A stretch of 64,000 bases of DNA from Candidatus Krumholzibacteriia bacterium (GTDB lineage: Bacteria > Krumholzibacteriota > Krumholzibacteriia > JAJRXK01), in contig JBGPIA010000002.1 in assembly GCA_041484665.1 (NCBI GenBank), positions 672,001 to 736,000 on the forward strand. Reading direction: 5' to 3'. Below the pieces are notes generated by a model. The model made no database searches. It worked only from the letters and a program-made list of their open reading frames with translations, and was not told where the DNA came from. The stretch's first letter is position 1. The number at the start of each line of letters is the position of its first letter. The position numbers and the translations under genes are program-made. Shown piece by piece: positions 32,650-64,000 of this stretch.

Positions 32650-34677
32650 CTACCCGACGGGGGTTGTGTCCTTTGCGGAAGCACCCGCACCGGACTCCGA
32701 TCCGGACGCTGCCGCAGGCGCGGCCACAGGCGCCGGCGAGGCCTCCTCCTCCACCCACTGCGGATGGTGGTGGCGCGCGTGTGCCGCGGGCATCGTGCCG
32801 CGGAACATGGCGAAGCTCAGCGGGTAGATCTCCGGATGGGCGATGACGTAGAAGAAGTGGAACACCAGGATCGCCAGAGTCGCCAGCCATGCCTCGAACA
32901 GATGAATGACCTGGCTCACCTTCACGATCCAGAACGGGAAGAGCGAGGTGGCCCACACCGGGAACCACAGCACGAACCCCGTGAGCGCCATGACGACGGT
33001 GCCCCACACCAGCGCCCAATATTCCGCCTTGGCGGGGTAATCGTACTTGGCGAAGGCCGCGGGCAGGTCGCTGCGGCCGAGGTGGAAGCGGAGATTCTGG
33101 CGCAGTTGGTCCCAATCGCGCAGCCGCGGCAGGATGCGGCGGATCTCCGCGCGGCCATAGGGCGTGAACAGCGCCCAGATCACGTGCTGCAACCCCGCTG
33201 CGATCATCACGAGCGCCGCGACGCGGTGGACCCAACGGCGCGTGGACTCGGTCAGCCCCAGCTGCAGGAAGAGCCGGCTCCACCACGTGTCGGGATAGGC
33301 CAGCATAAATCCGGTGAACACGAGGGTGAAGAAGCTGACGGTCAAGATCGCGTGCTGCGCCATCTGCGTGCGGCTGAAGCGCAGGCGCTCCGGCCCCGCG
33401 CGCTCGTCGCGCAGGCGGCGGCGCACGTGCCACGACAGGATGATCGCGTTGTGCGCGAGCATCCCGCCGATCACGGCGAACAGCAGCACCCAGTAGACGC
33501 GGCTCACCCAGCGCGCGATGACCACGTCCTGGGAGGCCTCGCCCGTGGCCTGGAAGTGCACCGGCCCCCGCGTGAACTGCACGCTCGCGCCGGGGTGGCA
33601 GCCGCCGCAGGTGGTCTGCAGGTTGGCCGCGGCCACGCGTGACCGCGGATCCGAGGACGGATAGATCGCGTGGATCCCGTGGCAGCTCGCGCAGTCGGCG
33701 ACCCGCTCGCTGCCGCGCTTGCTGGCCAGTCCGTGGTAGCTCCCGAAGTAGCTGGCGACACGCTGGTCCTTCACACCACGGGCGCTGGTGAGCGCGTCGC
33801 TGGCGTGGCAGGCGGGACACGTCGTACGCACCAGCCGCTCTTCGGCGGGCGTAGCGCCCGCGGCCGCCACCAACTTGATGGTGTGGATGCCGTGGCAGTC
33901 GGGGCAGGTGGGCGCCGCCGTCACGCCGCGCGCCGCGGCCAGCCCGTGCACCGAGCCGGAGAAGTCCGCAAACTCCTGCTTGTGGCAGAGGCCGCAGGTC
34001 GCGGGCACGTTGAACGGATTGATGGGCGAGGAAGGGTCCTTGGCCAGCTTGATGTCGTGCGATCCATGGCAGTCGGTGCACACTGCCGGCTTGGCGTTGG
34101 GATCCTCCAGCTTCAGCCCGTGCACGCTCTTCTGATAGTCGTCGAACGGCGCCGTGGTCAGACCGCCCGGTCCGACGATCGCGAGGTCCTGGTGGCAGCT
34201 ACCGCAGGTCTTGGGGATGTTGCGGAAGTAAACCCTGCTCTGCGCGTCGTCGACCGCGCGCACGTCGTGCACGCCGTGGCACTTGGCGCATGGATCCGCC
34301 GCCGGGAACGGCGAGCTGCCGTTGCGCTTGTCGCCGATGTGGCCGTGGACGCTTCCGGCGAAGGCCTTTGCGGCGTCCGCGTGGCAAGTGGAGCAGCGCG
34401 CAGGAGCCGCGTCTGGCGCGTGCGGGAAGTCACCCTTGCCCGCGTGGCAGTCGATGCAGCCCAGGCCCGCCGCGGCGTGGATCGAGGCGGCGAACGCCGC
34501 TGCATCCACGCGGTGCTGCGCGTCGAGGTCGACCACGTCGGCGCCGGCGCCGTGGCAGCCCAGGCAGTCATCGTTTCCGGCGGCCCGCGCGGGGGCAGCG
34601 CCGGTGCGCACCGCCCCCGCCAGGACGAGAACCAGGGTCACGACGCCGGGCAGGCCCGGATGCGGGAGGATTCTCAT
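32650..34677 (-). CDS. CbcL-like multiheme c-cytochrome fused to a cytochrome b membrane domain (11 CxxCH)
   Basis: Signal peptide, 11 CxxCH counted, TM region with FdnI-type His ligands (QH, HR, QH, IH..EA.LA, FH) and 'K.EYWALVWG'. Confidence 0.85.
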   Translation of the reverse strand: MRILPHPGLPGVVTLVLVLAGAVRTGAAPARAAGNDDCLGCHGAGADVVDLDAQHRVDAAAFAASIHAAAGLGCIDCHAGKGDFPHAPDAAPARCSTCHADAAKAFAGSVHGHIGDKRNGSSPFPAADPCAKCHGVHDVRAVDDAQSRVYFRNIPKTCGSCHQDLAIVGPGGLTTAPFDDYQKSVHGLKLEDPNAKPAVCTDCHGSHDIKLAKDPSSPINPFNVPATCGLCHKQEFADFSGSVHGLAAARGVTAAPTCPDCHGIHTIKLVAAAGATPAEERLVRTTCPACHASDALTSARGVKDQRVASYFGSYHGLASKRGSERVADCASCHGIHAIYPSSDPRSRVAAANLQTTCGGCHPGASVQFTRGPVHFQATGEASQDVVIARWVSRVYWVLLFAVIGGMLAHNAIILSWHVRRRLRDERAGPERLRFSRTQMAQHAILTVSFFTLVFTGFMLAYPDTWWSRLFLQLGLTESTRRWVHRVAALVMIAAGLQHVIWALFTPYGRAEIRRILPRLRDWDQLRQNLRFHLGRSDLPAAFAKYDYPAKAEYWALVWGTVVMALTGFVLWFPVWATSLFPFWIVKVSQVIHLFEAWLATLAILVFHFFYVIAHPEIYPLSFAMFRGTMPAAHARHHHPQWVEEEASPAPVAAPAAASGSESGAGASAKDTTPVG

Positions 34678-34732
34678 GATGGTCCGGGCCCCGGCGAGCC
34701 CGAACGCCCACCGGATCGCGCGCCCGTCGTCC

Positions 34733-35329
34733 TCAGGACTTGGGCTTCGTCTCCGGCTTCGCCTCGGCCGCCTTCGGATACGGATGCGCAATCACCGCGC
34801 TCATCTTCGCGAAGTCGAAGGGCTTGTAGGTCGGGCTCTTCTCGTTGTGGCAGGTCTTGCAGGTGGCCTCGGTGGGCATCACCAGTCCGGCCGCGATCGC
34901 CTTCGCCTTGTCCTTCATCGTGCTGATATCCTTGTAGTCGGAGCCGGGGCCGTGGCAGCTCTCGCAGCCCACGCCATCTTCCTTCTTGAACTTGAGCCCG
35001 ATCAGCTCGGACTTCACCCCGCACGCGGTGACGTGGCAGGAGAGGCACTTCTCGCTCTGCTGGGGGTCGCCCGTCACTCCGGCCTTGGCCGCGACCTCCT
35101 TGGCCTTGGGGTCGGCCAGGACGGCGTAGGCCTTGGCGTGCGGGCTGGCGAGCCACTTGCCGTACTGATCGCCCTTGGCGGCCACCTTGTGGCACAGCTT
35201 GCACCCGTCGGTTCCGATGTAGGAGTGGTCCTTCTTCGCCGCCGGCGGCGGCGCCTGAGCGAAGGCGGCAGGCACGGCAATCAGCGTGCACAGGAGCAGG
35301 GCCAGCGCGGCGAGCGCGATCTTCCTCAT
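34733..35329 (-). CDS. Periplasmic tetraheme cytochrome c554-like protein
   Basis: Signal peptide; YIG...CKLCH, CLSCH, GVGCESCHGPGS, CKTCH. Confidence 0.88.
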   Translation of the reverse strand: MRKIALAALALLLCTLIAVPAAFAQAPPPAAKKDHSYIGTDGCKLCHKVAAKGDQYGKWLASPHAKAYAVLADPKAKEVAAKAGVTGDPQQSEKCLSCHVTACGVKSELIGLKFKKEDGVGCESCHGPGSDYKDISTMKDKAKAIAAGLVMPTEATCKTCHNEKSPTYKPFDFAKMSAVIAHPYPKAAEAKPETKPKS

Positions 35330-35469: not shown

Positions 35470-36084
35470 TCAACCGTCGTTGGGGTTGGAGGCGCGCAGC
35501 GAGCGGACCGCCCCGGCGCAGCTGCCACAGAACGCATCAGGCTTGAGGTCGACCTCCTCCACCACCGTGGAGAATCGCATCACGCAATCCAGCGCGCGGC
35601 AGTGGTGCAAGCCGAGCAGATGGCCCACCTCGTGGAGCGCCTCGCGGCGGGCGCGGCCCCGCAGCAGGGCATCGTCGGGCGGCAGCCCGTAGAAGGAGGG
35701 ACGCAGTCGTTGCAGCGAGAACAGCGCGGCGTTGCCGGCCGGGCGCGCCTCGCCGAACACGTGGGTGAACACCGAGGAGTACAGATCGAGGTCGGCCACG
35801 CCCAGCGCCGCGAACCGCAGTACGGTAGGCTGCTGCGCGGCGGCGCCCAGCGCCCCGGGCTGCAGCGCGGTGGGCTGCTGCGCGGCGGCGGCGCGCTGCT
35901 CGAGCTGTACCAGCAGCTTGCGCGCATCCAGTTGGCGCCGCGCAGCCACGTACGCCAAAGCGGGATCCACCACGTCCAAGGCGACGCTGCAGGGGCGCCC
36001 GATGCTCTGCGCAAGGAACGCGGCGAGGTGGGCCAGGATCTCCCGCGGCGCTTCGCCGATGGCGATCAGCGACAGCCGCTCCAC
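35470..36084 (-). CDS. Archaemetzincin family Zn metalloprotease (M54)
   Basis: HEVGHLLGLHHC....CVM.FS..VEEVD.K...FC..C; VFGEA. Confidence 0.92.
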   Translation of the reverse strand: MERLSLIAIGEAPREILAHLAAFLAQSIGRPCSVALDVVDPALAYVAARRQLDARKLLVQLEQRAAAAQQPTALQPGALGAAAQQPTVLRFAALGVADLDLYSSVFTHVFGEARPAGNAALFSLQRLRPSFYGLPPDDALLRGRARREALHEVGHLLGLHHCRALDCVMRFSTVVEEVDLKPDAFCGSCAGAVRSLRASNPNDG

Positions 36085-36087
36085 GGC

Positions 36088-37449
<1,362 letters not shown>

Positions 37450-37452: not shown

Positions 37453-39282
37453 TCATCCCCTTGATACCGGCGTGCCCGAGAGCGCCTGTGCGGTCGATTC
37501 CGCCTGCAGTGCCGGCGTGACCGGCAACTCGATCCAGAAGGTCGTCCCCCGTGCGACCTCCGACCTGAAGTCGACCCGCCCCTGATGCCGCTGCACGATC
37601 CCGTACAGCACCGAGAGGCCCAGGCCCGTGCCTTGGCCGTGGGCCTTGGTGGAGAAGAAGGGCTCGAAGATGCGTTCGCGGAGCTCGGCCGGGATCCCTA
37701 CGCCAGTGTCGGCCACCTCGACGCGCACCCATGAGCCATCGCGCAGCCGCTGCGTGCTCACCGTGAGCGAGCCGCCGTCGGGCATGGCCTCGATTGCGTT
37801 CATGATCATCGCCACCATGGCCTGCTCGACCTGACCGGCATCGCAGATTACCGGCGGCAGCTCCGCATCGAGCTGCGTGGCCACCGCAATCTCCTGCAGC
37901 TCCACCTGGTGATTGAGCAGCTTCAGGCTGCGCCGGACGATCTCGTTGACGTCCTCCGGCGACGCGGACAGGTCGCGGCGCCTGGAGAACAGCAGCAGGT
38001 TGCGCACGATGTCCCCGCAGCGGGCCGCCTCGCGCTCGATCATGACCAAGGTCTCGGCGAGCTCCTGCTCGGCCGCCGAGGCCGCGGGCGGCGACGCCGG
38101 GGGCGGGCTCCCCGGTGCGGTCGCGGCCGGCAGCGCCGCGCCAGGCACCGCGGCGGGTGGCAGTACGGCGAGCGCCCCGCTGACCGGATCGCGGCCGCAG
38201 ACGCGAGGCAGCTTGCGCCGCACGAGCTTGGCGGACACGAGGATGCCGGCCAGCGGGTTGTTGATCTCGTGGGCAACGATCGCGGCCAGCTTGCCCAACG
38301 ATGCCATCTTCTCCGCGAACACCATCTGGTCGCGGGCGCGCTCGAGCTCGTGCGTCTTCTGCGCGACGCGCTCCTCGAGCGTGTGGCTCCACTGGTCCAG
38401 CTCGGCACGGGCGTGCTCGAGGCTCTCGGCCATCTCGTTGAACGAGCGCGAGAGCTCCTGCAGCTCGCCGGTGGCCACCGCCGGGATGCGATGCGAGAGG
38501 TCACCGCGCGCGAGCTGGCGGGTGCCGCGCAGCAGCGCGGCGATCGGCGGATCGACCACGCGCCACGCGATCAGCCCGACGCTGGCGCAGATCAGCACTA
38601 TGCTCAGCAGCACCAGCAGGGCCATCTGCCGCCCCGCGCTGGTCATGGCCGCGTCCAGCTGCGCCATAGAGAGCTCCACGTCCAACAGCCCCAGCACGCG
38701 CTGACTGGCGGGGTGCATGTGGCAACCCGCCGACGAGCACTCCGGCCGGTTGAGCACCGGCACGGCCAGCCCCAGCGCCTGCGCGCCGCTGGGCAGCGGG
38801 TAGAACGACAGCCCTTCGCGCAGCGTGGCCGGTGCGCGCGGCGTGCCGCCCTGGTGGCAGGAGCGGCAGGCGGGGGCGCTGACGTCGGCGACGCGTCCCA
38901 CCTCGCCCGGGCGGCTCGAGTAGCTGACGGTGCCGCTCGCGTTCACGAGTCTTACCGCCAGGACGCGGTCGCGGCCGCCGATGATCTCGATGATCTGCCG
39001 CAGGTGCTCGCGGTCGTTCTCCAGCATGGACGCGTGCGTGCTGGCGAGGATCGTCTCACCCATGCCCATGGCGGTCTGCTCGAGGGTCTGGACCAGGTGC
39101 TGCCGATGCAGGCGCAGCGTCAGGAAGCCGGTGGCGCCCAGCAGCGCCACGAGGCTGCCGCTGAGCAGCAGGACGAGCCGCCAGGCGAGACTGCGGCGGA
39201 TCGGCAGGAGCCACACCACGAGCCCTGCGCGGCGCGGGGGGCGCGGGAGGGCGCCGCTGGGCCGATCCGGGCGAGTCGCCAT
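37453..39282 (-). CDS. Sensor histidine kinase with heme-c motifs in the periplasmic domain (HAMP-HisKA-HATPase)
   Basis: Two TMs flanking CRSCH and [29 protein letters not shown] and GTGLGL motifs. Confidence 0.93.
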
Positions 39283-39600: not shown

Positions 39601-40920
39601 TCAGACCATCGGCGTCTCGGGGCGGGCCAGCGCGGCCGCGGACGCTGCCACGGGCGGCGAGGCCGGCACCGCAGCGGCGCCCACGTGCCTCTGCCACGCG
39701 ATCTCCTGCGCCCAGAGCCATTCGCGCTGCTGCTGCTCGTCCGCCGCGGCCTCGAACACGGGCAGGAACCGCCCAGCCAGGTTGAACAGGGTCACGCCGA
39801 TGGTGATCAGCATGAGGGTGATCGCCACCTCGGTCCAGGCCGGCACGTAGGTGACGCCGCTCATCGCCTCGAAACCGGTGATCGAAACGTCGAGGCGGTA
39901 CACAATGAAACCCAGGATCAAGAGCTGCGCCGACCGGTACATCCAGCGCGCGTTGCCGCGGATGCGCGGGGAGGCCAGCAGGATCATGGGCACGAGGAAG
40001 CCCACGATTACCTCGACCAGGAAGAACACCCCCGCACGGTTCAGCGGCCACAGGCTGCGCAGGGCGCCGCGGTAGATCAGGTCCAGGAAGCGGATGCTCA
40101 GGAACACGCCCGCCATCACGGCGGCGCCGCGCGCGGCCCCCCGCAGCACTTCCATCTCGATGTAGCGCCCGAACGCGCGCGCGCTGAGGTTCGACTCCAC
40201 GATGACCATGGCCAGGCCGGCCGCCACGGCCGAGGTGAAGAACAAGACCGGCAGGAGCATGGAGTACCACAGCGGGTGCAGCCGCCCGGGCATGATCAGG
40301 AACAGGCTCCCCAGCGACGACTGGTGCAGCATGGACAGCAGCACGGCCATGATCGTGAGCGGGAAGGTGAGCAGATGCGCGATGCGCGTGGCGCGCGGCC
40401 AACGCAATCGCTCGAACACCATCGCGGACACCTCCGCCGCCAGCACGATGGTGTACAGCGTGACGCACCACGCTACCTCGAACATCACCGAGTGGGGGTT
40501 CCACATCACCAACGGGTGCCAGATGTTCCAGGGCCGTCCCAGATCGAACATCAGCCCGCCGATCACCAGCAGGTATCCGATGAAGGCCGTGAGTACGGCG
40601 GGACGGGCCAGGGCCTTGTAACGCTCCAGCCGGAACACGTAGACCATCGCGCTAAGCGTGAAGCCGCCCGCGGCCAGGCCCACACCGCACAGCACGTCGA
40701 ATCCGATCCACAGCCCCCACGGGAAGGCGTCGGACAGGTGCGTGCTGCCGGCCAGCCCGCGCGTGAAGCGCAGGACCCCCGAGTACAGCCCCGCGCTCAA
40801 GCAGATTAGGCCAAGGACCCGCCACGGCTGCAGCAGCGCGCGCAGCATGGCGCGGCTTCGTGGGGGCGCGGATCCCTGCGGCTTTCGGGCCGCGACTTCG
40901 TTCCCATCCCAGCGGGTCAT
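39601..40920 (-). CDS. NrfD/HybB-family integral membrane quinone-interacting subunit
   Basis: PWGLWIGFDVLCGV.LAAGG, DLGRPW, SVMFEV..C and LS.LHQSSLG motifs; about 10 TMs. Confidence 0.92.
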   Translation of the reverse strand: MTRWDGNEVAARKPQGSAPPRSRAMLRALLQPWRVLGLICLSAGLYSGVLRFTRGLAGSTHLSDAFPWGLWIGFDVLCGVGLAAGGFTLSAMVYVFRLERYKALARPAVLTAFIGYLLVIGGLMFDLGRPWNIWHPLVMWNPHSVMFEVAWCVTLYTIVLAAEVSAMVFERLRWPRATRIAHLLTFPLTIMAVLLSMLHQSSLGSLFLIMPGRLHPLWYSMLLPVLFFTSAVAAGLAMVIVESNLSARAFGRYIEMEVLRGAARGAAVMAGVFLSIRFLDLIYRGALRSLWPLNRAGVFFLVEVIVGFLVPMILLASPRIRGNARWMYRSAQLLILGFIVYRLDVSITGFEAMSGVTYVPAWTEVAITLMLITIGVTLFNLAGRFLPVFEAAADEQQQREWLWAQEIAWQRHVGAAAVPASPPVAASAAALARPETPMV

Positions 40921-40922: not shown

Positions 40923-41711
40923 CTACTTCTCCTCCTGGCCCTGGTGGTCGCCTGTGGCCGGAGCTGTGTCGCCATCCACGACAACCGCCTCCCGGCGCAG
41001 CGTCATGCGGCGATTGATGACCCAGCTCACACCCAGCATCCCCGCGCCCACCACCGTGACCACCGTAGGGATCTGCGAGAGCACCTTCCACGTGCGCTGC
41101 GGCAACGACTCCAGCGGCACGTTCGTGGGCAGAACGCTCGCCAGCACCACCTGGGGTCCGATGTAGAGCACGCAGGCACCGCCCGCCTCCTCCAGGCCGT
41201 AGACCTTAGCAGCGTACTTCTTTGGCTCGGCGGCGATACGACGCCACGCCTCGGCGATCAGCTGTGTGCGCTCTCCGAAGCTGGTCGCGCCGGTGGGGCA
41301 CGCTTCCGCGCAGGCCGTGGGCTTGCCCTGCAGGACGCGCTCGGGGCACATGCGGCACTTCTGCACGCGCGGCGTGATCGAGCTCCACTCGTAGCGCGGG
41401 ATCTTGTACGGGCACGCCACCATGCAGTAGCGGCAGCCGATGCACTTGGCGGCGTCGTAGACGACCGGGCCCTCTTCCATCTTCTTCAGCGCGCCCACCG
41501 GGCACGCCGACGCGCAGCTGGGGTGCAGGCAGTGCATGCACATCCGCCGCACCCAGGTGTCGTCGCCGTGCTGCTCCAGCACCGTGTAGTCGGTGGCCGA
41601 CAGGCGGTCGGCGCGCGAGTCGGGGAGCTTGTTCTCCTGCTTGCACGCCTGGACGCACGCGCCGCACCCCACGCACAGGTTGACGTCGATCAACATCGCG
41701 TACATGGCCAT
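40923..41711 (-). CDS. HybA/NrfC-like 4x[4Fe-4S] protein with C-terminal TM
   Basis: CVGCGACVQAC, CMHC.HP.CASACP, CIGCRYCMVACP, KC.MC......P.ACAEACPTGA; no twin-arginine leader. Confidence 0.92.
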   Translation of the reverse strand: MAMYAMLIDVNLCVGCGACVQACKQENKLPDSRADRLSATDYTVLEQHGDDTWVRRMCMHCLHPSCASACPVGALKKMEEGPVVYDAAKCIGCRYCMVACPYKIPRYEWSSITPRVQKCRMCPERVLQGKPTACAEACPTGATSFGERTQLIAEAWRRIAAEPKKYAAKVYGLEEAGGACVLYIGPQVVLASVLPTNVPLESLPQRTWKVLSQIPTVVTVVGAGMLGVSWVINRRMTLRREAVVVDGDTAPATGDHQGQEEK

Positions 41712-41723
41712 TGCCCCCTCCGC

Positions 41724-42410
41724 CTACTGGCGGTCCGCATCCTGCAGGAGGAACTCGTCGACCAGAGACTTCCATTCCTGCTTCCCGAGGTGCTCGGCCA
41801 GATCGCTCGCCAGCACCCCCCCATCCTGGAACACGCTGCCGGTGGCCAGCATCAGCCGGTGCTGGAAGCGCTCGCGCACGTCCTCGGTCCAACGGCGTGC
41901 CAGCGAGCCCGCGAGCAGGTTGGGCAGCTCCTCGAACAGGTGTGCGGAGCGGATCTTGAACAGCCAGCCGCGGCCGTATCCGTCCTCGGACAGCAGATCG
42001 GGCTGGCCCTTCAGCCGCTTGTTGACCGCCACGACCTCGCCGCTGATGGGTGCGAGCAACCGCGCCTGCTGGCCGTCGCGGCGGACGGCCACCGCCGCCT
42101 GGCCCTGGCGCACGTACGCGCCCACGGGCGGCGCTGCCACCTTGACCTCGCGACCGAGCAGCCGGCGGGCGAAATCGTCGAGCCCGACGTAGGCCGTATC
42201 CGGGCCGACCTGGTGGACCCAGGCGTGCCCCTGGTGGAACCGCAGCATGGGCGGCAGCTCGAAGCCGGCGACCCAAAGCGGAGGAGTGTCCTTGATCCCC
42301 TCGTGGAGTGCCTCGCCCTCGGCCGCCAGCAGTTTGCGGTGGCGCCGTTCGAGCGAGGCGTCCACGGCGATGAACGCGATGAACATGATAGCGACCAGTA
42401 GGACGACCAT
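41724..42410 (-). CDS. Membrane-anchored glycine cleavage H-protein-like protein lacking the lipoyl-lysine
   Basis: GH.WV, VGLDDFA, APISGEVVAVN and YG.GWL motifs; N-terminal TM; RRDG where GcvH has ESVK; GGAGG RBS. Confidence 0.85.
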   Translation of the reverse strand: MVVLLVAIMFIAFIAVDASLERRHRKLLAAEGEALHEGIKDTPPLWVAGFELPPMLRFHQGHAWVHQVGPDTAYVGLDDFARRLLGREVKVAAPPVGAYVRQGQAAVAVRRDGQQARLLAPISGEVVAVNKRLKGQPDLLSEDGYGRGWLFKIRSAHLFEELPNLLAGSLARRWTEDVRERFQHRLMLATGSVFQDGGVLASDLAEHLGKQEWKSLVDEFLLQDADRQ

Positions 42411-42486: not shown

Positions 42487-42502
42487 GGCATCACCCGTGC
42501 CG
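42487..42502 (-). promoter_or_regulatory. Putative sigma54 -24/-12 promoter of the GcvH-like operon
   Basis: CGGCACGGGTGATGCC (GG-N10-GC), about 77 nt upstream of ATG 42410. Confidence 0.55.
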
Positions 42503-55325: not shown

Positions 55326-55904
55326 GTGACACGCTCGAGCCCATCCTGGGCGCCCGTCGTGCTGGCGGCGCTCGCGCTGGTCGGATGCGCCGGCCCGGCA
55401 CGGTTCGTCGACCCCGAGGCCGACCTTCCCTTCTATGAGGTCGTGGGAGTCGTCCCCTTCGTCACGCTGGCGCAGGACCGCCTCGCCGGCGAAAAGGCCA
55501 CCAACGTGTTCTTCACCGAGCTGCTCGGCCGCCGCTTCGCCCGCGTCACGGAGCCCGGCCAGTTCACCGCCGCCATGCAGCGCGTGCGCGGCGGGACGTC
55601 AGCGGCCAACCCCTGGTCCACAGCGGAGCTCGTGCGCCTGGGCGAGGAGGCCGGCGTGCAAGGGGTCTTCATGGGGACGGTGCGCGACTGGGACATGGCG
55701 CCAGCCGGGCGCGAGTCGTTCCCGTTGATCTCGCTCGAAGTCCGGCTGGTGGACACTGCGTCGGGACGCGTCGTCTGGAGCGCGAGCCAGACGCGCAAGG
55801 GCGGCCCCGCGCTGCCCCTGATCGGCTGGGGCGAGATCCACACGCTCGGTGAGCTGGCCTCCGACATGTGCCGCAACCTGCTCAAGACGCTGCCTCGAAA
55901 ATAG
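55326..55904 (+). CDS. CsgG/GNA1162-like lipoprotein
   Basis: Lipobox LVGC; 'V.VVPF..L', 'LG...GV..V..G.V', 'RLVD..SG.VVWS'. Confidence 0.75.
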   Translation: MTRSSPSWAPVVLAALALVGCAGPARFVDPEADLPFYEVVGVVPFVTLAQDRLAGEKATNVFFTELLGRRFARVTEPGQFTAAMQRVRGGTSAANPWSTAELVRLGEEAGVQGVFMGTVRDWDMAPAGRESFPLISLEVRLVDTASGRVVWSASQTRKGGPALPLIGWGEIHTLGELASDMCRNLLKTLPRK

Positions 55905-55916: not shown

Positions 55917-56663
55917 ATGGAGCTGCACTTCCACCCACTGCATCCGCGGCCACGCGTCCACCGGCTCGCTGCCGGGCGCGCACGCGGGCGCAGGCGGTGC
56001 TCGGTGACCGCGTTGCCGGGCTCGGCGACGCTGGGCGGCCCTGCGCTGCTGGGCGCCGCGCTGCGGGCCACGGCGCTGCTGGTCACGGCGCTGCTGGGCG
56101 CCTGCGGCGGGGCGTCTCCCCACGCCTTCGTCACCGAGCCGATCCAAGGGCCATTGCGCGTCGCGATTCTTCCGCTAGCCAACTACGCACCCGCGCGCGA
56201 TGCCGTCGATCGTGTGATGCCGGCACTGCTCGTTGGCCTGGGGCGCATGCGCGGTCTGGAGGTCGTGGATCCTGGACGCGTCGAGGAAGCGCTCGCACAG
56301 GAGCCCTGGCTGCTCATGGACCGCATCCCGCCGGACCTGGTGGGACGGCTGGGACAGTCGCTGGGCGCCGACGCGCTGCTGATGGGCTCCCTGCTCTCCT
56401 ACGGCTACCGCGAGTCCGGCGGCGAGCGCACGCCCCAGGTCTCCTTCTCGCTGCGCCTGGTGCAGGTGCCGAGCGCGCGCGTGCTCTGGAGTGCCGTACA
56501 CAGCCGCGACGGCGCCGACCACGAGTGGATCTTTGGCCTGGGGCGCGTGGAGAGTCTCGATCTGCTGACCACGCGGACGGTGGAGGAGATCCTCGAGAGC
56601 CTCCCGGTGAATGCCGACGGCAGAGCAGCCACGGCCGAACAAGAAACCGGAAAGGGGAAGTGA
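55917..56663 (+). CDS. CsgG/GNA1162-like lipoprotein (paralog)
   Basis: Lipobox LGAC; 'VAILPL.N', 'LG..LGADALL.G', 'LRLV.V....VLWS'. Confidence 0.75.
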   Translation: MELHFHPLHPRPRVHRLAAGRARGRRRCSVTALPGSATLGGPALLGAALRATALLVTALLGACGGASPHAFVTEPIQGPLRVAILPLANYAPARDAVDRVMPALLVGLGRMRGLEVVDPGRVEEALAQEPWLLMDRIPPDLVGRLGQSLGADALLMGSLLSYGYRESGGERTPQVSFSLRLVQVPSARVLWSAVHSRDGADHEWIFGLGRVESLDLLTTRTVEEILESLPVNADGRAATAEQETGKGK

Positions 56664-56665: not shown

Positions 56666-57235
56666 ATGTTCGCGGAGCACGCCCTCGTGGCTTGGTTGAT
56701 CTGCGGTCTGGCATCGCCGGCGCCTCCTGCGCAGCGCGCGCAGCCCGCGGCAGCTGCGCCGGCAGCCATCGCGCCGGCAGCGCATACGGCGCCCGCCGCG
56801 CATCCGGTGCCCGCCGCGCCGCCGGCAGCGGCCGGGGAAGCGAAGGCGGCCGGCGACTCGACCCAGGCGCCCAACGTCAAGTTCGTGCCCGTGCCGCAGG
56901 ACACGAGCCTCGTCTTCCTGATCCAGGCCGGCAACCGCCTCTATCCCGAATGGAAGGAGGAGCACAGGGTGCGCCTGCACGAGCGCTTCCCGCTGGGCGA
57001 CACGCGCAACAGCGCGGAAGTCGGCCGCTTCTTCCCCGACTTCCGCATCATCGACGGCAAGCCCATGAACGTCGGGCGGACGCTGGGCAATCCAGCCATC
57101 CGCGTGTTCGTGTTCGAGGAGGAAGCGCCAAAGGACAGCTCGTGGGCGTTCCTGAATTTTCCGCCGCATTTCTCGCCGCACTCGTTCTACACGTTTCAGC
57201 TCGAGCAGGTGAAGGGCTACCCAGCCGCGAATTGA
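56666..57235 (+). CDS. Exported protein with ResB-periplasmic/DUF2155-like domain
   Basis: Signal plus Ala/Pro linker; 'F.PDF.I.DG.....NPAIRV.V.E......W.F..FP' pattern (family assignment from memory). Confidence 0.55.
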   Translation: MFAEHALVAWLICGLASPAPPAQRAQPAAAAPAAIAPAAHTAPAAHPVPAAPPAAAGEAKAAGDSTQAPNVKFVPVPQDTSLVFLIQAGNRLYPEWKEEHRVRLHERFPLGDTRNSAEVGRFFPDFRIIDGKPMNVGRTLGNPAIRVFVFEEEAPKDSSWAFLNFPPHFSPHSFYTFQLEQVKGYPAAN

Positions 57236-57307: not shown

Positions 57308-60300
57308 ATGCGTAGGGCAACGGGGATCGGGTGGGTGGAGTCCTGGAGGCTCTCCCTGGGGGTCGCGACTGCGTTGGTATGCGCGGCGGCCACGGCCACG
57401 GCGCCGCCAGCGCGCGCCGCCACCGGCCGGCCCTGCTACGAATGCCACAAGGAGGCGCGGGAGCAGTTCAAGAAGCTCGTGGTCCATCCACCGGTGGCCA
57501 AAGAGGACTGTGAGGCGTGCCACAAACGCCACGGCTTCGCGCAGACGCTGATCCTCCAGAAGAGCTTCCCCGATCTCTGCACCGGATGCCACGCGAACGT
57601 GATTGCGCCGCCCTCCGGCGCCCAGGCTGGCAAGACGGGGTCCAACCACCTGGTGTACGCGTCGGTGAACTGCGTGTCGTGCCACGATCCCCACGCCGCC
57701 GACCGCAAGGGCCTCCTGCGCGGCACGCAGGCACAGACCTGCGCCCAATGCCACCCGCGCATCCAGGCCGCGCTCACCGCCAAGGAGCCGCACAAGCCGT
57801 TTGCCGAGGGGAAGTGTGACGCCTGTCACGGAACCCACGACGCGCCGCAACCCAACCTGCTGCTGGCGCCCGAGGCCGAGCTGTGCGCCCGCTGCCACGG
57901 TCCAACGGTGGGGTTGCCGGAACTCCATCGTCGACCGGAGGTGGCGGGCGCCGCCTGCTCCTCGTGCCACGATCCCCACGGGGCGCCCAAGGCGGGCAGC
58001 GGCGGCGGCTACATCCACCAGCCGTTCGCCGAGGCCAACTGTGGCGTCTGCCACACCGACCCCAAGGCCGATCCCAAGGCGCTCACCGCCACCCAGGGCG
58101 AGCTGTGCGGGACATGCCACGGCGAGGTGGCCACGGTCGCCCAGGCACAGGGTGGACATCCGCCTGCCGCGGCCGGGGATTGCACGCGCTGCCACGAGCC
58201 ACACCGCTCCGACCGCGGCGCGCTCCTGAAAGGTGACGCCGAGGATCTTTGCATGCCCTGCCACGGCGACTTGCGCGACCAGCAGAAGCTCGCCGCGCAG
58301 CACGCGCCGTTCCGCGACCTGGACTGCTCCGCCTGCCACGCGCCGCACGGCAGCACGACCACCGCGATGCTGAAACAAGTGCCCCAGGCGCTGTGCCAGT
58401 CCTGTCACCAACCGATCGTGGACAAGGCCAAGGCCGCCAAGGCGCAGCATCCGCCGGTGCTGACGGACTGCTCGGCCTGCCACGTACCCCACGCCAGCGA
58501 GCAGCCGAAGCTGTTACACGATCTTCCCGGTCAGACCTGCCTTGGCTGCCACTCTGCCCAGGAGGCCGAGCAGAAGCTACCCGTGGTGCACTTGCCATTC
58601 TCCGTGGGTGACTGCGGCTCGTGCCATGGAGCGCACGGGACCGATGTGCCCGGCATGCTGGTGCGCAGCGATCCGGTGCTCTGCATCACGTGTCACCGCA
58701 AGCAGGGTGACGAGCGGCACATGGCCGCTCCCCACGCCCCGTTCGCTGCGGGCGAATGCTCGACGTGCCACGCCCCGCACGCGGGGAGGAATGGCGGGCT
58801 GCTGGTCTCCTCGCAGCAGGAGCTTTGCGCGAGCTGCCACGGCCAGATCAAAGGCACCGCGGCAGCGGCGACCGCGGCGGCCCCCAGCGCCGCCAGCCTG
58901 CACGCGCCGGTCGCGGGCGGCGAGTGCTCCGCCTGTCACAACCCGCACGCCGTCGACTCGGGCAAGGCGCTGCTGCGCGAGGCGGGCGGTGCCGAGCTGT
59001 GCTTCACGTGCCACACCGCGCTCAAAGACTCCTTCGCCGCGGGCGTCGTCCACGCCCCCGTCAAGGAAGGCAAGTGCACCACTTGTCACGACGGCCACCA
59101 GACCATGGATGACAAGGGCCAGATCCTGCTGAAGACGGCCTGCACCAGCTGCCATGACGCCGGCACGGGCGACTTCCGCAAGATCCACGGGGAATTCCAG
59201 CTGGAGGCCTCGACCTGCGTGGAGTGCCACGACCCGCACCGCAGCGACGCCAAGGGACTGCTGCGCAAGGTGCGCCACGAGCCGTTCGCCAGCGATGCGT
59301 GCGGTACCTGCCACCAGCCGCCGGCTCCCGGCCGCGCCCCGCAGCTCTTGTCCGAGCAGGGTAAGCTGTGCGCGAGCTGCCACGGCGCGCCGCAGGAGCC
59401 GGCGCCGCCCAAGGGGCTGCACGCGCCCGTGGCCGCCGGTGAGTGCAGCGAGTGTCACAATCCCCATGTGGCGCAGCGGGCCGCCCTGCTGCGTGGCAGT
59501 GGCGGTGACCTGTGCCTGCGCTGCCACGACGACCTCGACTTGGCCCTGAAGACCGCCGGTCCCGAACTCGTCCACAAGCCCGTGGAGGCCAAGCAGTGCG
59601 ACGCGTGCCACGGCGGGCACACCGGCATCATGCCGGGCCTGCTGGACCAGAGCGTCCCCGGCTTGTGCGCGACCTGCCACGGCGATGTGCTGGAGCGCGC
59701 CGGGCGCAAGTTCGGCCACGCGCCCGCCAAGCAGGGCAAATGCCTGGAGTGCCACGACCCGCACCTGGGCAAGAGCAAGGGGCTGCTGGTCACCGCCAGC
59801 ACGCGGGAACTGTGCGCCAAGTGCCACGACAGCAACGCTGCGCACTTCCAGACCGCCCATCGCGGCTTCAAGGTCGGACTCGGCAACTGCGCCGGCTGCC
59901 ACGACCCCCACGGGTCGGACCAGAAGGGGCTGATGCCGGCGTTCGCCCACGTTCCGTATGCAGAGGGCGAGTGCGCGTCGTGCCACGCATCGCCGGATCA
60001 GCTGGTGGCGTCACCGCCGCAGCTGTGCACGAGCTGTCACGACGACCACGCGCAGGACGCCCAGAAGGCCTTCCCGCACAAGGCCGTCTCCGAAGGGCCG
60101 GCGTGCCTCAACTGCCATGCTCCCCACGCAGGCAAGACCGCGTCCCTACTGATCCGCGAGGACGTGGGCAGGACCTGCTGGACGTGCCACGAGCGCGCCG
60201 CCTTCCAGCACAAGAACCAGCACCCCGACCTGCAGAGCGGTTGCACCAACTGCCACGACCCGCACGGCAGCGCTACGGGAAGGATCCTGAAGGCGCCCGA

Positions 60301-60526
60301 GGCGGAGCTCTGCATCAAGTGCCACGACGCCACCAAGACCCACGCCCACCCGATCGGCGCTCCGGCGAAGGACCCGCGCACGGGCGAGGCCTTGACCTGC
60401 ACGTCGTGCCACTCGCCGCACAGCAGCGATCAGGAGGCGCTGCTCACGCACGAGAAGAAGCGGGAGCTGTGCGTGCAATGTCACCTCGGCCCGAACCTCG
60501 AGGTGCGCGGCAGGAAGTCGCACTAG
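57308..60526 (+). CDS. Giant periplasmic multiheme cytochrome (42 CxxCH)
   Basis: GGAGG RBS, signal peptide ending ARA; 42 CxxCH counted in 'H.P....CxxCH.PH...LL.....LCxxCH' doublets. Confidence 0.95.
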   Translation: MRRATGIGWVESWRLSLGVATALVCAAATATAPPARAATGRPCYECHKEAREQFKKLVVHPPVAKEDCEACHKRHGFAQTLILQKSFPDLCTGCHANVIAPPSGAQAGKTGSNHLVYASVNCVSCHDPHAADRKGLLRGTQAQTCAQCHPRIQAALTAKEPHKPFAEGKCDACHGTHDAPQPNLLLAPEAELCARCHGPTVGLPELHRRPEVAGAACSSCHDPHGAPKAGSGGGYIHQPFAEANCGVCHTDPKADPKALTATQGELCGTCHGEVATVAQAQGGHPPAAAGDCTRCHEPHRSDRGALLKGDAEDLCMPCHGDLRDQQKLAAQHAPFRDLDCSACHAPHGSTTTAMLKQVPQALCQSCHQPIVDKAKAAKAQHPPVLTDCSACHVPHASEQPKLLHDLPGQTCLGCHSAQEAEQKLPVVHLPFSVGDCGSCHGAHGTDVPGMLVRSDPVLCITCHRKQGDERHMAAPHAPFAAGECSTCHAPHAGRNGGLLVSSQQELCASCHGQIKGTAAAATAAAPSAASLHAPVAGGECSACHNPHAVDSGKALLREAGGAELCFTCHTALKDSFAAGVVHAPVKEGKCTTCHDGHQTMDDKGQILLKTACTSCHDAGTGDFRKIHGEFQLEASTCVECHDPHRSDAKGLLRKVRHEPFASDACGTCHQPPAPGRAPQLLSEQGKLCASCHGAPQEPAPPKGLHAPVAAGECSECHNPHVAQRAALLRGSGGDLCLRCHDDLDLALKTAGPELVHKPVEAKQCDACHGGHTGIMPGLLDQSVPGLCATCHGDVLERAGRKFGHAPAKQGKCLECHDPHLGKSKGLLVTASTRELCAKCHDSNAAHFQTAHRGFKVGLGNCAGCHDPHGSDQKGLMPAFAHVPYAEGECASCHASPDQLVASPPQLCTSCHDDHAQDAQKAFPHKAVSEGPACLNCHAPHAGKTASLLIREDVGRTCWTCHERAAFQHKNQHPDLQSGCTNCHDPHGSATGRILKAPEAELCIKCHDATKTHAHPIGAPAKDPRTGEALTCTSCHSPHSSDQEALLTHEKKRELCVQCHLGPNLEVRGRKSH

Positions 60527-60968: not shown

Positions 60969-62972
60969 CTACGCAGCCTCGCGACTCTCCCGCAGCGACA
61001 CGCGCCACAGATAGACGCAGAATCCCGTGAAGCCGACCAGCGAGACGAGCTGCGAGATGCCCAGGTGGTCGTAGAAGGGCGTCTTGATCCGATCCTCGGC
61101 GTACCAGGGGAAGAGCCGCAGCGCCGCGCCCAGCACGCCGCCCAGAGCGCCGCCGGCCATCAGCCCCGACGCGATGACCACGCCGCGCTCGCGGATCGAG
61201 GCGCCCTTGCGGCCGCCAACCCGCTCGGACCGCCGGGTGAGGAAGTGGTGCAGGAACCCGCCGACCAGGGCCGGCGAGTTCAGCTCCAGCGGCAGGTACA
61301 TCCCCAGGGCGAAGACCAGGGCGGGCACCTTCAGCATCTCCATGACCAGGGCGATCATGGCGCCGGCACCGAACAGCAGGTACGCCACCGGCTGGCGGCT
61401 CATGAACCCCTCGACCAGCGCCTTCATGATCGAAGCCTGGGGGGAGGCCAGCACCACGCGGGTGTCACCCGGCGCGGCCTCGCCGAACTGGAATCCCTTG
61501 GCCAGCATCACGATGGTCAGGCCGGAGGCCACGGACGCCGCGACCACGCCCAGGAACTTGACGCGCTGCTGCGCCGCGGGCGTGGAGCCCAGCCAGTAGC
61601 CGGTCTTCAGGTCGGTGATGGTCTGGCCGGAGACCGACAGCGCGGTGCAGACCATCCCCGCGATCGCCATGACGAAGAACATCCCGGACGTGCCCGACAC
61701 CCCGAACTGCAGCAGCACCACCGACGAGATGATGATGGTCAGCATCGTCATCCCTGAGACCGGATTGCGGGCGGTGGTGGCGATGGCGTTGGCCGCCACC
61801 GAGGTGAAGAAGAACGAGAACACGACGACCAGCAGCAGGCCCAGGATCACGATGCTCAACGAGGCGTGCAGCGTCCCGAAGAAGGCGGCCACGCCCAGGC
61901 TGCTCAGAATGACGCCGACGAGGATCGACATCACGGTGATGTCGCGGTCGGTGCGCTCCAGGCCGCCGTGCTCGCCCTGGCGGAAGGCGCGCGTAGCGAT
62001 GGCGAAGCTCCCCAGCACCACGCGCAGCGACTTGATGATCCCGAAGATCCCGGCGGTCGCGATGCAGCCGACGCCGATGAAGCGCACGTAGCCGCGAAAG
62101 ATCTGATTGGCGTCCATCTGGGCGATGGGCACGGTCGCGGGATAGACCACCGCGTCGGGAAAGTGGCGGCCGATCATCCAGATGAGCGGGACCAGCGCGA
62201 AGTTCGCCAGCACGCCCCCGGCGCACAGGATCATCGAGGAACGCAGCCCCATGACGTAGCCCAGTCCGAGGATGAACGCGACCGCGTCGAAGTTGAACAC
62301 GACCCGCGCGCGTTGCGCGATCCGCTCCACGACCGGAACGAACCGGAAGCTGATGTTCTCGCTCCAGACGTGGAAGGTCGTTACGAGGAAGTCGTAGACG
62401 CCGGCCAGGGCGGTGGCCTGCAGCAGCAGCTTCGCCTGGGAGCCGCCCTTCTCCCCCGTCACCAGTACCTCGGTGATCGCGGTTGCCTCGGGGTAAGGCA
62501 GCTGCCCGTGCATCTCGCGCACGAAATAGCGCCGCAGCGGGATCAGGAACAGCACGCCCAGGCAGCCGCCGGCCAGACAGATGAAGATGGTCTGCAGCGG
62601 GTGCGGATCGAGCTTGAGGATGTAGAGCGCGGGCAGCGTGAAGATGGCGCCCGCGACCACCGCGCCCGAGACGCCGCCGATCCCGGTGATGATCACGTTC
62701 TCCAGCAGCGTGGAGCGGCGCGCGTACACGCGGGCCATTCCGATGGCCAGGATCGAGATGGGGATGGCCGCCTCCATCACCTGCCCGACCTTCAGGCCCG
62801 AGTAGGCCGAGGCGATGGTGAAGATCACGCAGAGGAACAGGCCCCACAGCACCGACCGCGCTGTCAGCTCCGGCATCTTTGCGGGAGCGGGGACGATGGG
62901 CTGGTACACCTCACCCGGCGCGAGCCCGGTGTAGGCGTTCTCGGGCAGTGACTTGGTCTGCGCAGCGTCCAT
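60969..62972 (-). CDS. OPT family oligopeptide transporter
   Basis: ELT.RS...G, YSGLKVG...AAIP, LENVI, LPYPE.TA..EVL, NPVSGM, DLKTG..LGSTP..QQ and APQA-like motifs. Confidence 0.93.
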   Translation of the reverse strand: MDAAQTKSLPENAYTGLAPGEVYQPIVPAPAKMPELTARSVLWGLFLCVIFTIASAYSGLKVGQVMEAAIPISILAIGMARVYARRSTLLENVIITGIGGVSGAVVAGAIFTLPALYILKLDPHPLQTIFICLAGGCLGVLFLIPLRRYFVREMHGQLPYPEATAITEVLVTGEKGGSQAKLLLQATALAGVYDFLVTTFHVWSENISFRFVPVVERIAQRARVVFNFDAVAFILGLGYVMGLRSSMILCAGGVLANFALVPLIWMIGRHFPDAVVYPATVPIAQMDANQIFRGYVRFIGVGCIATAGIFGIIKSLRVVLGSFAIATRAFRQGEHGGLERTDRDITVMSILVGVILSSLGVAAFFGTLHASLSIVILGLLLVVVFSFFFTSVAANAIATTARNPVSGMTMLTIIISSVVLLQFGVSGTSGMFFVMAIAGMVCTALSVSGQTITDLKTGYWLGSTPAAQQRVKFLGVVAASVASGLTIVMLAKGFQFGEAAPGDTRVVLASPQASIMKALVEGFMSRQPVAYLLFGAGAMIALVMEMLKVPALVFALGMYLPLELNSPALVGGFLHHFLTRRSERVGGRKGASIRERGVVIASGLMAGGALGGVLGAALRLFPWYAEDRIKTPFYDHLGISQLVSLVGFTGFCVYLWRVSLRESREAA

Positions 62973-63069
62973 GGGCTCCCTCGTGTCTCGCGCACCATGC
63001 ACGTTGAAGGATCGGTACACCGGATCGAGTGGCCGATGGTAGGGGTCGGCCCCAGGGGCGGGCAAGTTC

Positions 63070-64000
63070 TCAGGTGGGGTGCGGGGAGCGCTCGATCTCG
63101 CGGATCCAGAGACCGAGCCCCACCGTGACGAGCAGGATGAGCGCCACCGCCACGGCCAGCCCAGCCCGCCGGCGCGAGAGCTCGCGCAAGGCGCCCTCCG
63201 CCTGCTCCAGCACGGCGCGCCCACCCTCGGCGCCGCGCCGGTAGGTCTGGGCGAACTGCCCCGGGTCGGAGTGGTCGAAGCTGTGGACCAGCACCTCGAG
63301 CGAGATCTCGGCATCCACCACTGCGCCCAGCTGGAAGGAAGCCTCGCCAACCTCCATGCCGGCGCGCTCGGCGCTGAGCAGCTTGCGCCGCGCGTGGGCC
63401 GCCAGGCGCGTCAGCTCCTGTTGGTCCTTGGAGAAGCCCGCCGCCACGGTGTAGCCAGCGTCGCCCGGCGCGTGGCAGTCGGCGCAGCGCGAGCTCGTCT
63501 CACCGATCTTGCCGACGCGGAACTTCAGGAACAGCTCGTCGAACTCGGCGCTGTGGTGGCGCTGCTTGGCGCGGTCCACCAGCCAGTCGAAGCGAGCCTG
63601 CGGATCGGTGGCGCCCGCGGCCTGCGACGCGGCCAAGAGCGACGCACGCTCGTCAGCGAACCCGGGCGGGTCGCCGGGAGAGTGGCAGATGTCACACGGC
63701 GTCTCGGGCACCGCAGCCAGCATGACGATGCTGGGGCGCGGCACCTCGTGGGAGCCGTGGCACGACATGCACTCGGGCAGCCCCAGCTGGTCGAATGCCG
63801 CTGCCTTCTTGCTGCCGCGGAACAGCTCCGCCTCGCGCGCGTGGCAGGTGCCGCACACGTTGGTTACGGAGTTGACGCCCGGGGGGACCGCACCGTGGTT
63901 GCCGTGGCAGTCGTTGCAGGCGGGGGCCGCGGTGTCCTGCCTCTTGAGCAGCGCGATCCCGTGCACGCTCGCCGTGTACTTCGCGTACTGGTCGGTGGCG
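63070..64000 (-). CDS. Multiheme cytochrome with C-terminal membrane anchor (5' end outside window; at least 5 CxxCH)
   Basis: Frame open to the window edge (..DQYAKYTASVHG..); CNDCH, CGTCH, CMSCH, CDICH, CADCH; helical stalk and C-terminal TM. Confidence 0.85.
   Translation of the reverse strand, partial: ATDQYAKYTASVHGIALLKRQDTAAPACNDCHGNHGAVPPGVNSVTNVCGTCHAREAELFRGSKKAAAFDQLGLPECMSCHGSHEVPRPSIVMLAAVPETPCDICHSPGDPPGFADERASLLAASQAAGATDPQARFDWLVDRAKQRHHSAEFDELFLKFRVGKIGETSSRCADCHAPGDAGYTVAAGFSKDQQELTRLAAHARRKLLSAERAGMEVGEASFQLGAVVDAEISLEVLVHSFDHSDPGQFAQTYRRGAEGGRAVLEQAEGALRELSRRRAGLAVAVALILLVTVGLGLWIREIERSPHPT

Follow-up and report, generated by a model that had tools for sequence, protein, structure and literature searches.

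The window analysed here is a stretch of 64,000 nucleotides (positions 672,001 to 736,000 of contig JBGPIA010000002.1, assembly GCA_041484665.1) from a Candidatus Krumholzibacteriia bacterium, and it holds a cluster of multiheme cytochrome genes that we take, with moderate confidence, to be a respiratory supercluster exporting quinone-pool electrons to extracellular acceptors in an oxygen-capable host, outward flow being the best reading of its parts. Ten multiheme cytochromes are encoded at the locus, and a six-frame count over positions 32650 to 64000 gave 108 CxxCH motifs. Positions 1 to 32649 of the window held one such motif, 50 shuffled sequences averaged 1.52 (maximum 4), and 153 genome tiles of the same size had a median of 1. 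The motifs number 11, 4, 6, 12 and 9 per open reading frame (ORF) on the minus strand and 6 (7 with one additional Cx3CH), 6, 6 and 42 per ORF on the plus strand, and the last cytochrome ORF, on the minus strand, carries 5 within the window and 10 over its whole length; every haem count given in an initial annotation of these letters, together with its total of about 108, was thereby reproduced. The cluster extends from about 32.65 to about 66.3 kb (end near 66,313; approximately 34 kb) and overruns the window, because the last cytochrome continues past it, downstream of a Rieske protein and a cytochrome b. It contains 10 of the 21 ORFs of the host genome (G000) that have at least three CxxCH motifs, and 112 of their 237 motifs. 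Its architecture is that of divergent units, not of a single operon, with an OPT transporter, an archaemetzincin and a GcvH-like gene interspersed, and it is, to judge from gene order and protein trees, a mosaic of a block inherited within the family and an osc-type cassette of separate history.

The osc-type cassette and its OmcS-like hexaheme

The cassette consists of eight plus-strand genes in about 10.5 kb and was compared with the reference genome G104, which lies in the class of a Desulfuromonadales-labelled record and encodes a hexaheme matching OmcS in the PDB with an E value of 1e-281. Around this OmcS gene, G104 carries an NHL gene, more hexahemes, a gene at the YVTN position, a barrel, two lipoproteins, a peptidyl-prolyl isomerase (PPIase)-like protein and cytochromes of the 26- and 16-haem types, an arrangement that corresponds to the osc cluster as given in PMC13194489. 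The osc labels other than oscC, oscI and oscJ were assigned by gene order. In the window, the cassette begins with an NHL beta-propeller that is OscA-like by position (50000..51211; E 9e-31 to the G104 ORF) and continues with two hexahemes, S1 (51306..52364) and S2 (52552..53733), an OscE-like outer-membrane beta-barrel (barrel B, 53730..55313), a PelC-like, OscF-like lipoprotein (55326..55904; E 3.6e-45), a second PelC-like lipoprotein resembling a single-domain OscG (56004..56663, the start being 55917 or 56004; E 3e-40), a small exported ResB-domain-like protein at the OscH position (56666..57235) and a 42-haem periplasmic cytochrome (57308..60526). The E values for OscA, OscE, OscF and OscG were obtained with G104 ORFs in a small database. 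Among 53 loci, which span 10 kb each way and include related loci that are not independent of one another, the five core cassette genes occurred together in 18, from several phyla.

S1 was identified by its profile, fold and histidine map as a divergent OmcS-family hexaheme and a candidate nanowire subunit. The protein is secreted, has six CxxCH motifs and yielded 524 homologues among 8,000 scored candidates. With a 112-row profile, OmcS was the sole significant PDB match (E 2.2e-7) among the seven matches listed; the S1 model also retrieved OmcS as the top entry in VIA (Z 10.6, root-mean-square deviation (rmsd) 4.2, 236 aligned; next Z 5.2) and at rank 1 in Foldseek (E 4.4e-3). Furthermore, H29, H43, H122, H152, H236 and H308 of S1 align with H2, H16, H110, H147, H247 and H335 of OmcS, and these six S1 histidines are invariant in 112 of 112 homologues. 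OmcS takes one haem histidine ligand from the neighbouring subunit (PMC6584659). S1 thus shares with OmcS (PDB 6EF8/6NEF) the six CxxCH motifs, the N-terminal F-H...CxxCHxxH segment and the conserved distal histidines, in addition to being its top fold match, whereas in our trees, which are quick trees with long-branch warnings, it appears to represent a distant subfamily on a long branch and is a candidate for polymerisation only. The inter-subunit ligand is presumably OmcS H16, which corresponds to H43 of S1.

For barrel B, the model has 28 strands with a predicted local distance difference test (pLDDT) score of 91, and its profile matched the G104 barrel with an E value of 8.6e-12. The top Foldseek match was MtrB (6r2q_B) at 9% identity, and several barrels ranked within about 1.5 Z in VIA. 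Because a word-based search with barrel B gave only three proteins, the alignment used (A3) was built from gene neighbourhoods; it has 18 rows, of which 11 are only 14-18% identical and 9 were picked by position. The second hexaheme, S2, belongs to a separate family whose profile reaches OmcS only at E 0.31, and we rejected on these grounds its interpretation as an OmcT/OscC-like paralogue. S2 alone gave no OmcS match in the PDB and no MtrA match, and the S2 and S1 families were related by hhalign at 95% (E 1.9e-8), possibly driven by the motifs. When barrel B and S2 were modelled together, the complex score was 0.70 compared with 0.00 for the best control (S1 was not among the partners), in a scheme where 116 of 157 solved pairs and 2 of 215 mismatched pairs came up to the complex-score mark. 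The runs agreed in at least 60% of contacts with a partner pLDDT of at least 62, and the contacts involved mostly alternate residues and touched all 28 strands. On this modelling, S2 is read as sitting in the lumen of barrel B. The arrangement resembles MtrAB (6R2Q) in that a cytochrome is predicted to occupy the inside of a large barrel and differs from it in that barrel B is only 9% identical to MtrB and that S2 has six haems and no match to MtrA.

The 42-haem protein corresponds to OscI (26 haems) joined colinearly to OscJ (16 haems): OscI aligned best with its residues 41-669 (32% identity) and OscJ with its residues 684-1059 (35%). The 16-haem copy of genome G114 served as the OscJ query, since the OscJ-position gene of G104 consists of two overlapping frames. 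These frames lie at L218:4189-5529, carry 10 and 5 motifs and perhaps reflect a frameshift. Of the ORFs in the 53 loci, 21 had exactly 42 motifs, 5 had 26 and 7 had 16. The small gene between the second lipoprotein and the 42-haem cytochrome has no Pfam, PDB or Atlas family, and its profile matched a ResB protein (E 4e-10; 95% by hhalign over 70 columns). It was considered as OscH and rejected, because it gave no match and OscH is PPIase-like. The ResB-like small gene was present in 23 of the 53 loci and OscH in 7, and both occurred together in none. A full ResB-family gene lies a few kb upstream of the cassette of genome G011 (L267:5483-7300).

Taken together, the cassette follows the osc cluster of Geobacter sulfurreducens in the order of the NHL protein, OmcS-like hexaheme, barrel, two PelC-like lipoproteins and 26 plus 16 haems. 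In contrast to that cluster, it has one OmcS-like gene instead of three, with about 325 rather than 407 mature residues and 23% identity, the unrelated hexaheme S2 before the barrel, a barrel of 527 rather than 729 amino acids, a single-domain OscG, fused OscI and OscJ with 42 haems and no OscB, OscD or OscH, the small ResB-like gene standing at the OscH position.

Quinone-side proteins, porin-cytochrome module and regulators

The putative ImcH-family heptaheme quinol oxidase (48139..49695, plus strand) was identified by homology to a G104 copy, and its match in the PDB is NrfH. It has 518 amino acids, three helices, a NapC/NirT domain and six CxxCH plus one Cx3CH, and is 46% identical over the full length to the G104 protein (E 3e-154), with the same helices and motifs. 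We take the G104 ORF to be ImcH by name and these to be the defining features of ImcH. The present gene shares them with Geobacter ImcH and differs in that it adjoins both outer-membrane modules, whereas the Geobacter gene stands alone. ImcH is described as acting in quinol oxidation above about -0.1 V (2025 review).

At the other end of the cluster, a fusion of an 11-haem periplasmic domain to an FdnI/b561-type membrane cytochrome b (32650..34677, minus strand) is 31% identical over residues 199-643 (445 residues) to a 9-haem, 619-amino-acid G104 protein. It resembles CbcL in the fusion of a multiheme c domain to a membrane b-type domain; CbcL has nine c-haems (PMC9129911), so the protein was filed as CbcL-like. 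It also differs in its predicted helices, five plus a signal in place of six, and its orthology to CbcL is putative. Beside it lies a periplasmic tetraheme c554-like cytochrome (34733..35329, minus strand; PF13435), a type found next to the cassette in 8 of the 53 loci. ImcH was found within 10 kb of the cassette in 7 of these loci, a CbcL-like gene in 5 and the porin described below (barrel A) in none.

The remaining quinone-side genes of the window are an NrfD-family (HmcC/HybB-like) quinone-reactive membrane subunit (39601..40920, minus strand) and a 4Fe-4S HmcB/HybA-like subunit with a C-terminal helix and no twin-arginine translocation (Tat) signal (40923..41711, minus strand), which lacks an N-terminal extension in 4 of 4 relatives as well. 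A membrane-anchored GcvH-like protein is encoded at 41724..42410 on the minus strand. The set of GcvH-like, iron-sulfur (FeS) and NrfD genes (40923-42410) is kept in the family without a catalytic partner, and the GcvH-like gene is doubled in two genomes. At the far end, the 10-haem membrane-anchored cytochrome (63070-64584, of which 63070..64000 lies in the window; minus strand), which carries a C-terminal helix, is the last gene of an operon with a cytochrome b (64581-65798) and a Rieske protein (65801-66313), both beyond the window; this operon is 31-42% identical to a like operon in G104. An OPT-family transporter (60969..62972, minus strand) interrupts the cluster and is probably unrelated to it. 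The three quinone-interacting membrane proteins named in the initial annotation were thus recovered as the NrfD, ImcH-like and CbcL-like proteins, with the cytochrome b as a fourth just past the window.

The second outer-membrane module is formed on the minus strand by an OmbB/OmbC-like porin (barrel A, 44550..45899), a 12-haem periplasmic cytochrome (43609..44550), a 6-haem lipoprotein cytochrome (42929..43594) and a 9-haem lipoprotein cytochrome with a PKD-like domain (45991..47676). Barrel A was identified by homology: it matched a 403-amino-acid G104 porin (E 1.5e-11 in the small database), its closest named Atlas clusters are barrels (0.91-0.92) and it has no C-terminal aromatic residue. 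The two outer-membrane barrels proposed initially accordingly stand on different grounds, barrel B on its 28-strand model and barrel A on homology only. The 12-haem protein is OmaB/OmaC-like in its C-terminal part, where residues 165-316 share 40% identity with two identical 8-haem G104 proteins (E 6.8e-24 in the small database). The 9-haem lipoprotein is a candidate outer-surface subunit; it matched a G104 12-haem lipoprotein weakly (E 8.7e-7) and is 59-60% identical to copies that precede a porin in G011 and G026, which belong to another family. We named the duplicated G104 genes OmbB, OmaB and OmcB from their architecture. The module resembles the OmbB-OmaB-OmcB conduit in combining a porin, a periplasmic multiheme and a lipoprotein multiheme in one unit and differs from it by its 12-haem instead of 8-haem periplasmic subunit and its two lipoprotein cytochromes.

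The dedicated haem-binding two-component system of the initial annotation was also found. Its HAMP histidine kinase (37453..39282, minus strand) carries CxxCH and Cx4CH between two predicted membrane helices, in the periplasmic part, and both motifs are kept in the 4 relatives checked. A sigma-54 (NtrC/AtoC-type) response regulator (36088..37449, minus strand) is 70-72% identical to its family copies, and an archaemetzincin-like protein (35470..36084, minus strand) is kept at the operon end in the family. A site resembling the sigma-54 -24/-12 consensus was seen before the GcvH-like gene (42487..42503, minus strand), and each of the 7 GcvH-like copies in five family genomes has a similar one at -95 to -108, by a pattern that was loosened after sight and had no background test. 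A consensus site also lies 95 nucleotides before the 9-haem lipoprotein gene (47755..47771, minus strand). It was found upstream in none of 7 relatives, and both strands of contig C2 together hold 19 such sites with no more than one mismatch. A sigma-70 promoter was not found in 45-64 kb.

Across 12 regions compared, five same-family genomes retained the arrangement of genes between ImcH and the archaemetzincin, apart from the 9-haem lipoprotein, at 43-72% identity, and a sixth, G005, had a different order. The left block, which comprises ImcH, the OmbB/OmaB-like module, the NrfD/FeS pair and the haem-sensing two-component system, is, by its synteny, ancestral to the family. The GC content of the cluster (67-73%) is the same as that of its flanks, and its GC content at third codon positions (GC3) is 0.84-0.95 compared with 0.88-0.91. 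A recent transfer of the whole region was rejected because its GC and GC3 are like those of the flanks and its left block shows synteny within the family. The word island, as used in the initial annotation, therefore applies in a functional sense, and not as a compositional anomaly, with half of the cluster being family-ancestral.

Proposed electron path and its alternatives

In the proposed mechanism, the ImcH-like, CbcL-like, NrfD/FeS and Rieske/cytochrome b proteins would, by analogy with their homologues, oxidise quinol at different potentials. Because no PpcA was found, the c554-like tetraheme (a candidate soluble shuttle) and the 42-haem OscI-OscJ wire are proposed as the carriers that may cross the periplasm. 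Electrons could then leave by two outer-membrane exits, the first being the OmbB/OmaB-like module with its 6- and 9-haem lipoproteins and the second being the osc-type cassette, in which the barrel, the PelC-like lipoproteins and the NHL protein would export or anchor the OmcS-like hexaheme. In the last and least certain step, S1 would polymerise into a conductive extracellular filament that could reach Fe(III)/Mn(IV) oxides, humic matter or partner cells. Control of the minus-strand units probably lies with the haem-bearing kinase and the sigma-54 regulator, in response to the periplasmic redox state.

Several observations weigh against this mechanism. No triheme PpcA-type shuttle was found, there being no ORF of at least 70 amino acids with exactly three CxxCH in G000, which is 93.65% complete. 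OscD, a YVTN propeller, had no tblastn match in G000 (one query, E 1e-4) and no room in the cassette, and OscH had no match in the cassette and general PPIase-like matches only, elsewhere in G000. Regarding S1, the single sequence gave no OmcS match in the PDB by phmmer, the Foldseek comparison had a template modelling (TM) score of 0.30 and an rmsd of 11.6 with a model pLDDT of 74, the identity to OmcS was 64 of 278 aligned positions (23%), and haem 6 was unaligned with OmcS in the profile alignment. Since MtrAB is an already solved complex, the passing score of barrel B and S2 may reflect likeness only. The NrfD/FeS pair has no catalytic partner and no Tat signal, and quinone reduction is the usual activity of HybAB/HmcBC-type pairs. 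The host's oxidases, cytochrome bd, alternative-complex-III-like operon, type II dimethyl sulfoxide (DMSO)-family enzyme and Cyc2-like ORFs make inward flow possible. The role of OmcS in the reduction of Fe(III) oxide or anodes is disputed even in Geobacter (PMC13194489). The description of the locus as a complete Geobacter-style chain is therefore retained for ImcH, the CbcL-like protein, the OmbB/OmaB-like module and an OmcS homologue with most of its osc companions, and not for the triheme PpcA-type ORF, for OscD and OscH in the cassette or for the second of the two hexahemes, only one being OmcS-like.

It may also be possible, as a tentative extension of this mechanism, that the cassette represents a second, widespread type of OmcS-nanowire machine, in which the OscE-like barrel, as modelled, would be plugged by S2 rather than an open pore and would form an MtrAB-like conduit joining the 42-haem wire to the outside filament, with the ResB-like protein replacing OscH. 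If this is true, it would show how nanowires are charged and anchored without PpcA, and the OscE barrel of Geobacter may also hold a cytochrome. Nanowire secretion, anchoring and charging were still called speculative in the 2025 review.

An unlikely alternative, though the most probable of the three considered, is that these proteins work inward or in both directions, taking electrons from Fe(II), reduced humics, minerals or partner cells and passing them through the porin-cytochrome modules to quinone, by way of the NrfD/FeS and CbcL-like proteins, or to the oxidases; we agree with the initial annotation that the direction of electron flow cannot be read from sequence. The host has two haem-copper oxidases, cytochrome bd, an alternative-complex-III-like operon, three more Rieske/cytochrome b operons and a type II DMSO-family enzyme, and the oxidases and cytochrome bd indicate an oxygen-capable organism that is not a strict anaerobe. 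Inward flow would also suit the NrfD/FeS pair, which has no local dehydrogenase, and the two NiFe hydrogenases, which are both cytoplasmic (Vhu and sulfhydrogenase types). Three single-haem ORFs elsewhere in the genome, at C12:88906-90360(-), C1:692076-693386(+) and C1:766936-768114(+), look like Cyc2, a call that we make from an N-terminal motif only, with no hidden Markov model match, and that counts for less on this account. The C12 ORF heads an operon of Rieske protein, cytochrome b and an 8-motif cytochrome. A published Krumholzibacteria metagenome-assembled genome (MAG) has both OmcS and Cyc2 (bioRxiv 10.1101/2020.09.22.307553). Against this alternative, the literature assigns ImcH and CbcL the role of quinol oxidases in outward flow (2025 review; PMC9129911), and we continue to favour export.

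It is rather improbable, in our estimation, that the co-location is only regulatory or historical and that the modules serve separate ends, such as a haem capacitor or a periplasmic relay to oxyanion or O2 reduction, the OmcS-like protein being a surface cytochrome without a wire. Such a view accommodates the divergent units with unrelated genes inside, the missing OscH and OscD, the 125 of 237 multiheme motifs that lie elsewhere in the genome, and the linkage data, in which barrel A adjoined the cassette in none of the 53 loci and shared a contig with an OscF-like gene, among 22 genomes, only in G011. It conflicts with the invariant OmcS-type histidines, including the N-terminal CxxCHxxH, and with the recurrence of ImcH, c554 and CbcL-like genes beside the cassette in unrelated phyla. 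No catalytic oxyanion reductase was found among the family matches of the cluster proteins, and this candidate function was rejected.

The integrity of the assembly was examined in public sequencing runs. Four of 24 listed runs, all from sediment and none flagged as a possible source, covered 30 of 30 bins of 30.6-50.5 kb, the part compared in this way; pieces among the 32 listed (4,465 others exist) line up end to end over 30.6-48.4 kb, each with 0-5 letter differences. Depth over 30.6-48.4 kb was even in the four other runs, where 0.89-0.95 of the sequence words from 49.8-57.3 kb were also present. An assembly chimera or binning artefact joining the cytochrome genes of several organisms is extremely improbable given this tiling, the 0.47% contamination, the uniform GC3 and the synteny of the left block within the family, although Eisenbacteria-labelled and other records, and not the family copies, are the tree neighbours of S1 and the OscF-like protein, the 16S rRNA gene lies on another contig and no piece bridging the ImcH-NHL junction was among those listed. 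Where tested, the analysis gave no oxyanion-reductase matches, no sign that the barrels lie outside the outer membrane and no chimera, the three outcomes that the initial annotation had named as contrary to its interpretation. No RNA dataset with the locus was among the runs listed.

Host, spread and earlier reports

The host genome G000 has 5.45 Mb and 69.5% GC and is 93.65% complete and 0.47% contaminated. The 16S rRNA gene, located on contig C3, shares about 90% identity with its nearest records; in the tree it belongs to a clade of seven rows supported at 100/100, in which 5 of 5 phylum-labelled rows are Krumholzibacteriota. The tree used 30 of the 37 matches that had at least 900 aligned bases, and the search pattern was derived from G000 and finds look-alikes only; because of this origin, the placement is only probable. 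The host is probably, by this gene, a sediment bacterium of the Krumholzibacteriota, which fits the earlier guess of a candidate phylum on the Fibrobacteres-Chlorobi-Bacteroidetes side. The rpoB gene was not found in G000. Genes for Ccm cytochrome maturation are located on contig C1.

A census of 208 genomes of the phylum found ImcH-like proteins in 126, barrel-A-like proteins in 39 and OscF-like proteins in 71, at E cut-offs of 1e-60, 1e-8 and 1e-20, respectively, and two families (43 and 8 genomes) had no census match. All 9 of the weaker OscF-like loci that were inspected proved to be osc clusters, with an OmcS-like gene 26-36% identical to OmcS, and OscH was kept in 8. A Geobacter-order cluster occurs on other contigs in two same-family genomes, and in the family of G061 (6 genomes), only partial hexaheme matches were found. 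Grouping S1 or OscF of G000 with the family copies was rejected by the approximately unbiased test (P values of 3e-56 and 2e-41, respectively, on quick trees, the S1 tree having 24 of the 49 named-locus rows of the broader one); both proteins group with Eisenbacteria-labelled and unlabelled records. The separate history of the cassette, as these trees suggest it, would fit either a transfer or an old paralogy with loss, and we claim no donor. Among the 22 other genomes of the phylum with both OscF-like and barrel-A proteins, the two were on the same contig only in G011, 75 kb apart, so the tight all-in-one layout is uncommon, with the caveat that fragmented MAGs hide linkage. This arrangement is unusual and adds little mechanism by itself.

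The initial annotation knew of no demonstration of this function in the lineage. Novelty on that score is not supported, since iron-reduction potential via OmcS in Krumholzibacteria was claimed first in 2020 at the level of marker genes (Dalcin Martins et al., bioRxiv 10.1101/2020.09.22.307553), and the hardware is common in the phylum. In that study, an omcS-bearing Krumholzibacteria MAG climbed to 9.1% of reads in an iron-fed reactor. The present locus shares with it the phylum and the inferred OmcS iron-reduction potential and differs in that the accessible part of the report gives marker-gene matches, with no description of cluster anatomy, inner-membrane tier or subtype. Published work describes OmcS homologues as widespread and reports syntenic porin-cytochrome clusters from peat Acidobacteriota and Verrucomicrobiota, as well as Cyc2 from Krumholzibacteriota; in the literature examined we found no experimental evidence of extracellular electron transfer (EET) for this lineage and no description of the OscH-less subtype, the 42-haem fusion or the barrel plug, which the paper on the Geobacter osc cluster (Shen et al. 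2025) may cover. What is added here seems to be the OscH-less subtype with a ResB-like stand-in, the OscI-OscJ fusion, the predicted hexaheme plug and the phylum census. The cassette is of interest as a natural minimal version of the osc cluster, in fixed order across several phyla, that predicts a barrel hexaheme plug and a 42-haem wire in the place of PpcA, and genes for EET appear, from the census, to be frequent in Krumholzibacteriota, a point of relevance to the cycling of iron and carbon in sediments.

Further loci of the host genome were noted. A second candidate porin-cytochrome locus at C11:108663-116791 (L247:6663-14791) encodes a flavin/FeS oxidoreductase, 23-haem and 31-haem cytochromes and a barrel-like protein of 561 amino acids with a C-terminal Phe and no Pfam or NCBIfam family. 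At C10:101997-104953 (L248:5997-8953), a 19-haem cytochrome is followed by a b-type membrane cytochrome, together a candidate quinol oxidase. The type II DMSO-reductase-family enzyme (C7:135867-143968; L253) scores above the TIGR03479 cut-off, has a Tat-like N-terminus and is linked to a set of Rieske protein, cytochrome b and a 6-motif cytochrome. Two octaheme proteins (C1:782167-783774 and C11:138674-139855) gave weak hydrazine-dehydrogenase-family matches. A secreted protein of 997 amino acids with five CxxCH and a C-terminal domain like those of FlgD and the type IX secretion system (T9SS) lies beside the aa3 oxidase operon (C1:745183-748176; L249:5183-8176), and FlgD/T9SS-like C-terminal domains are also present on secreted proteins flanking the cluster (29676-32402 of the window and L001:11892-16379, the second by eye). 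Far from the cluster, positions 509-7787 of the window carry six tRNA genes in two groups, four of which are tRNA-Ser.

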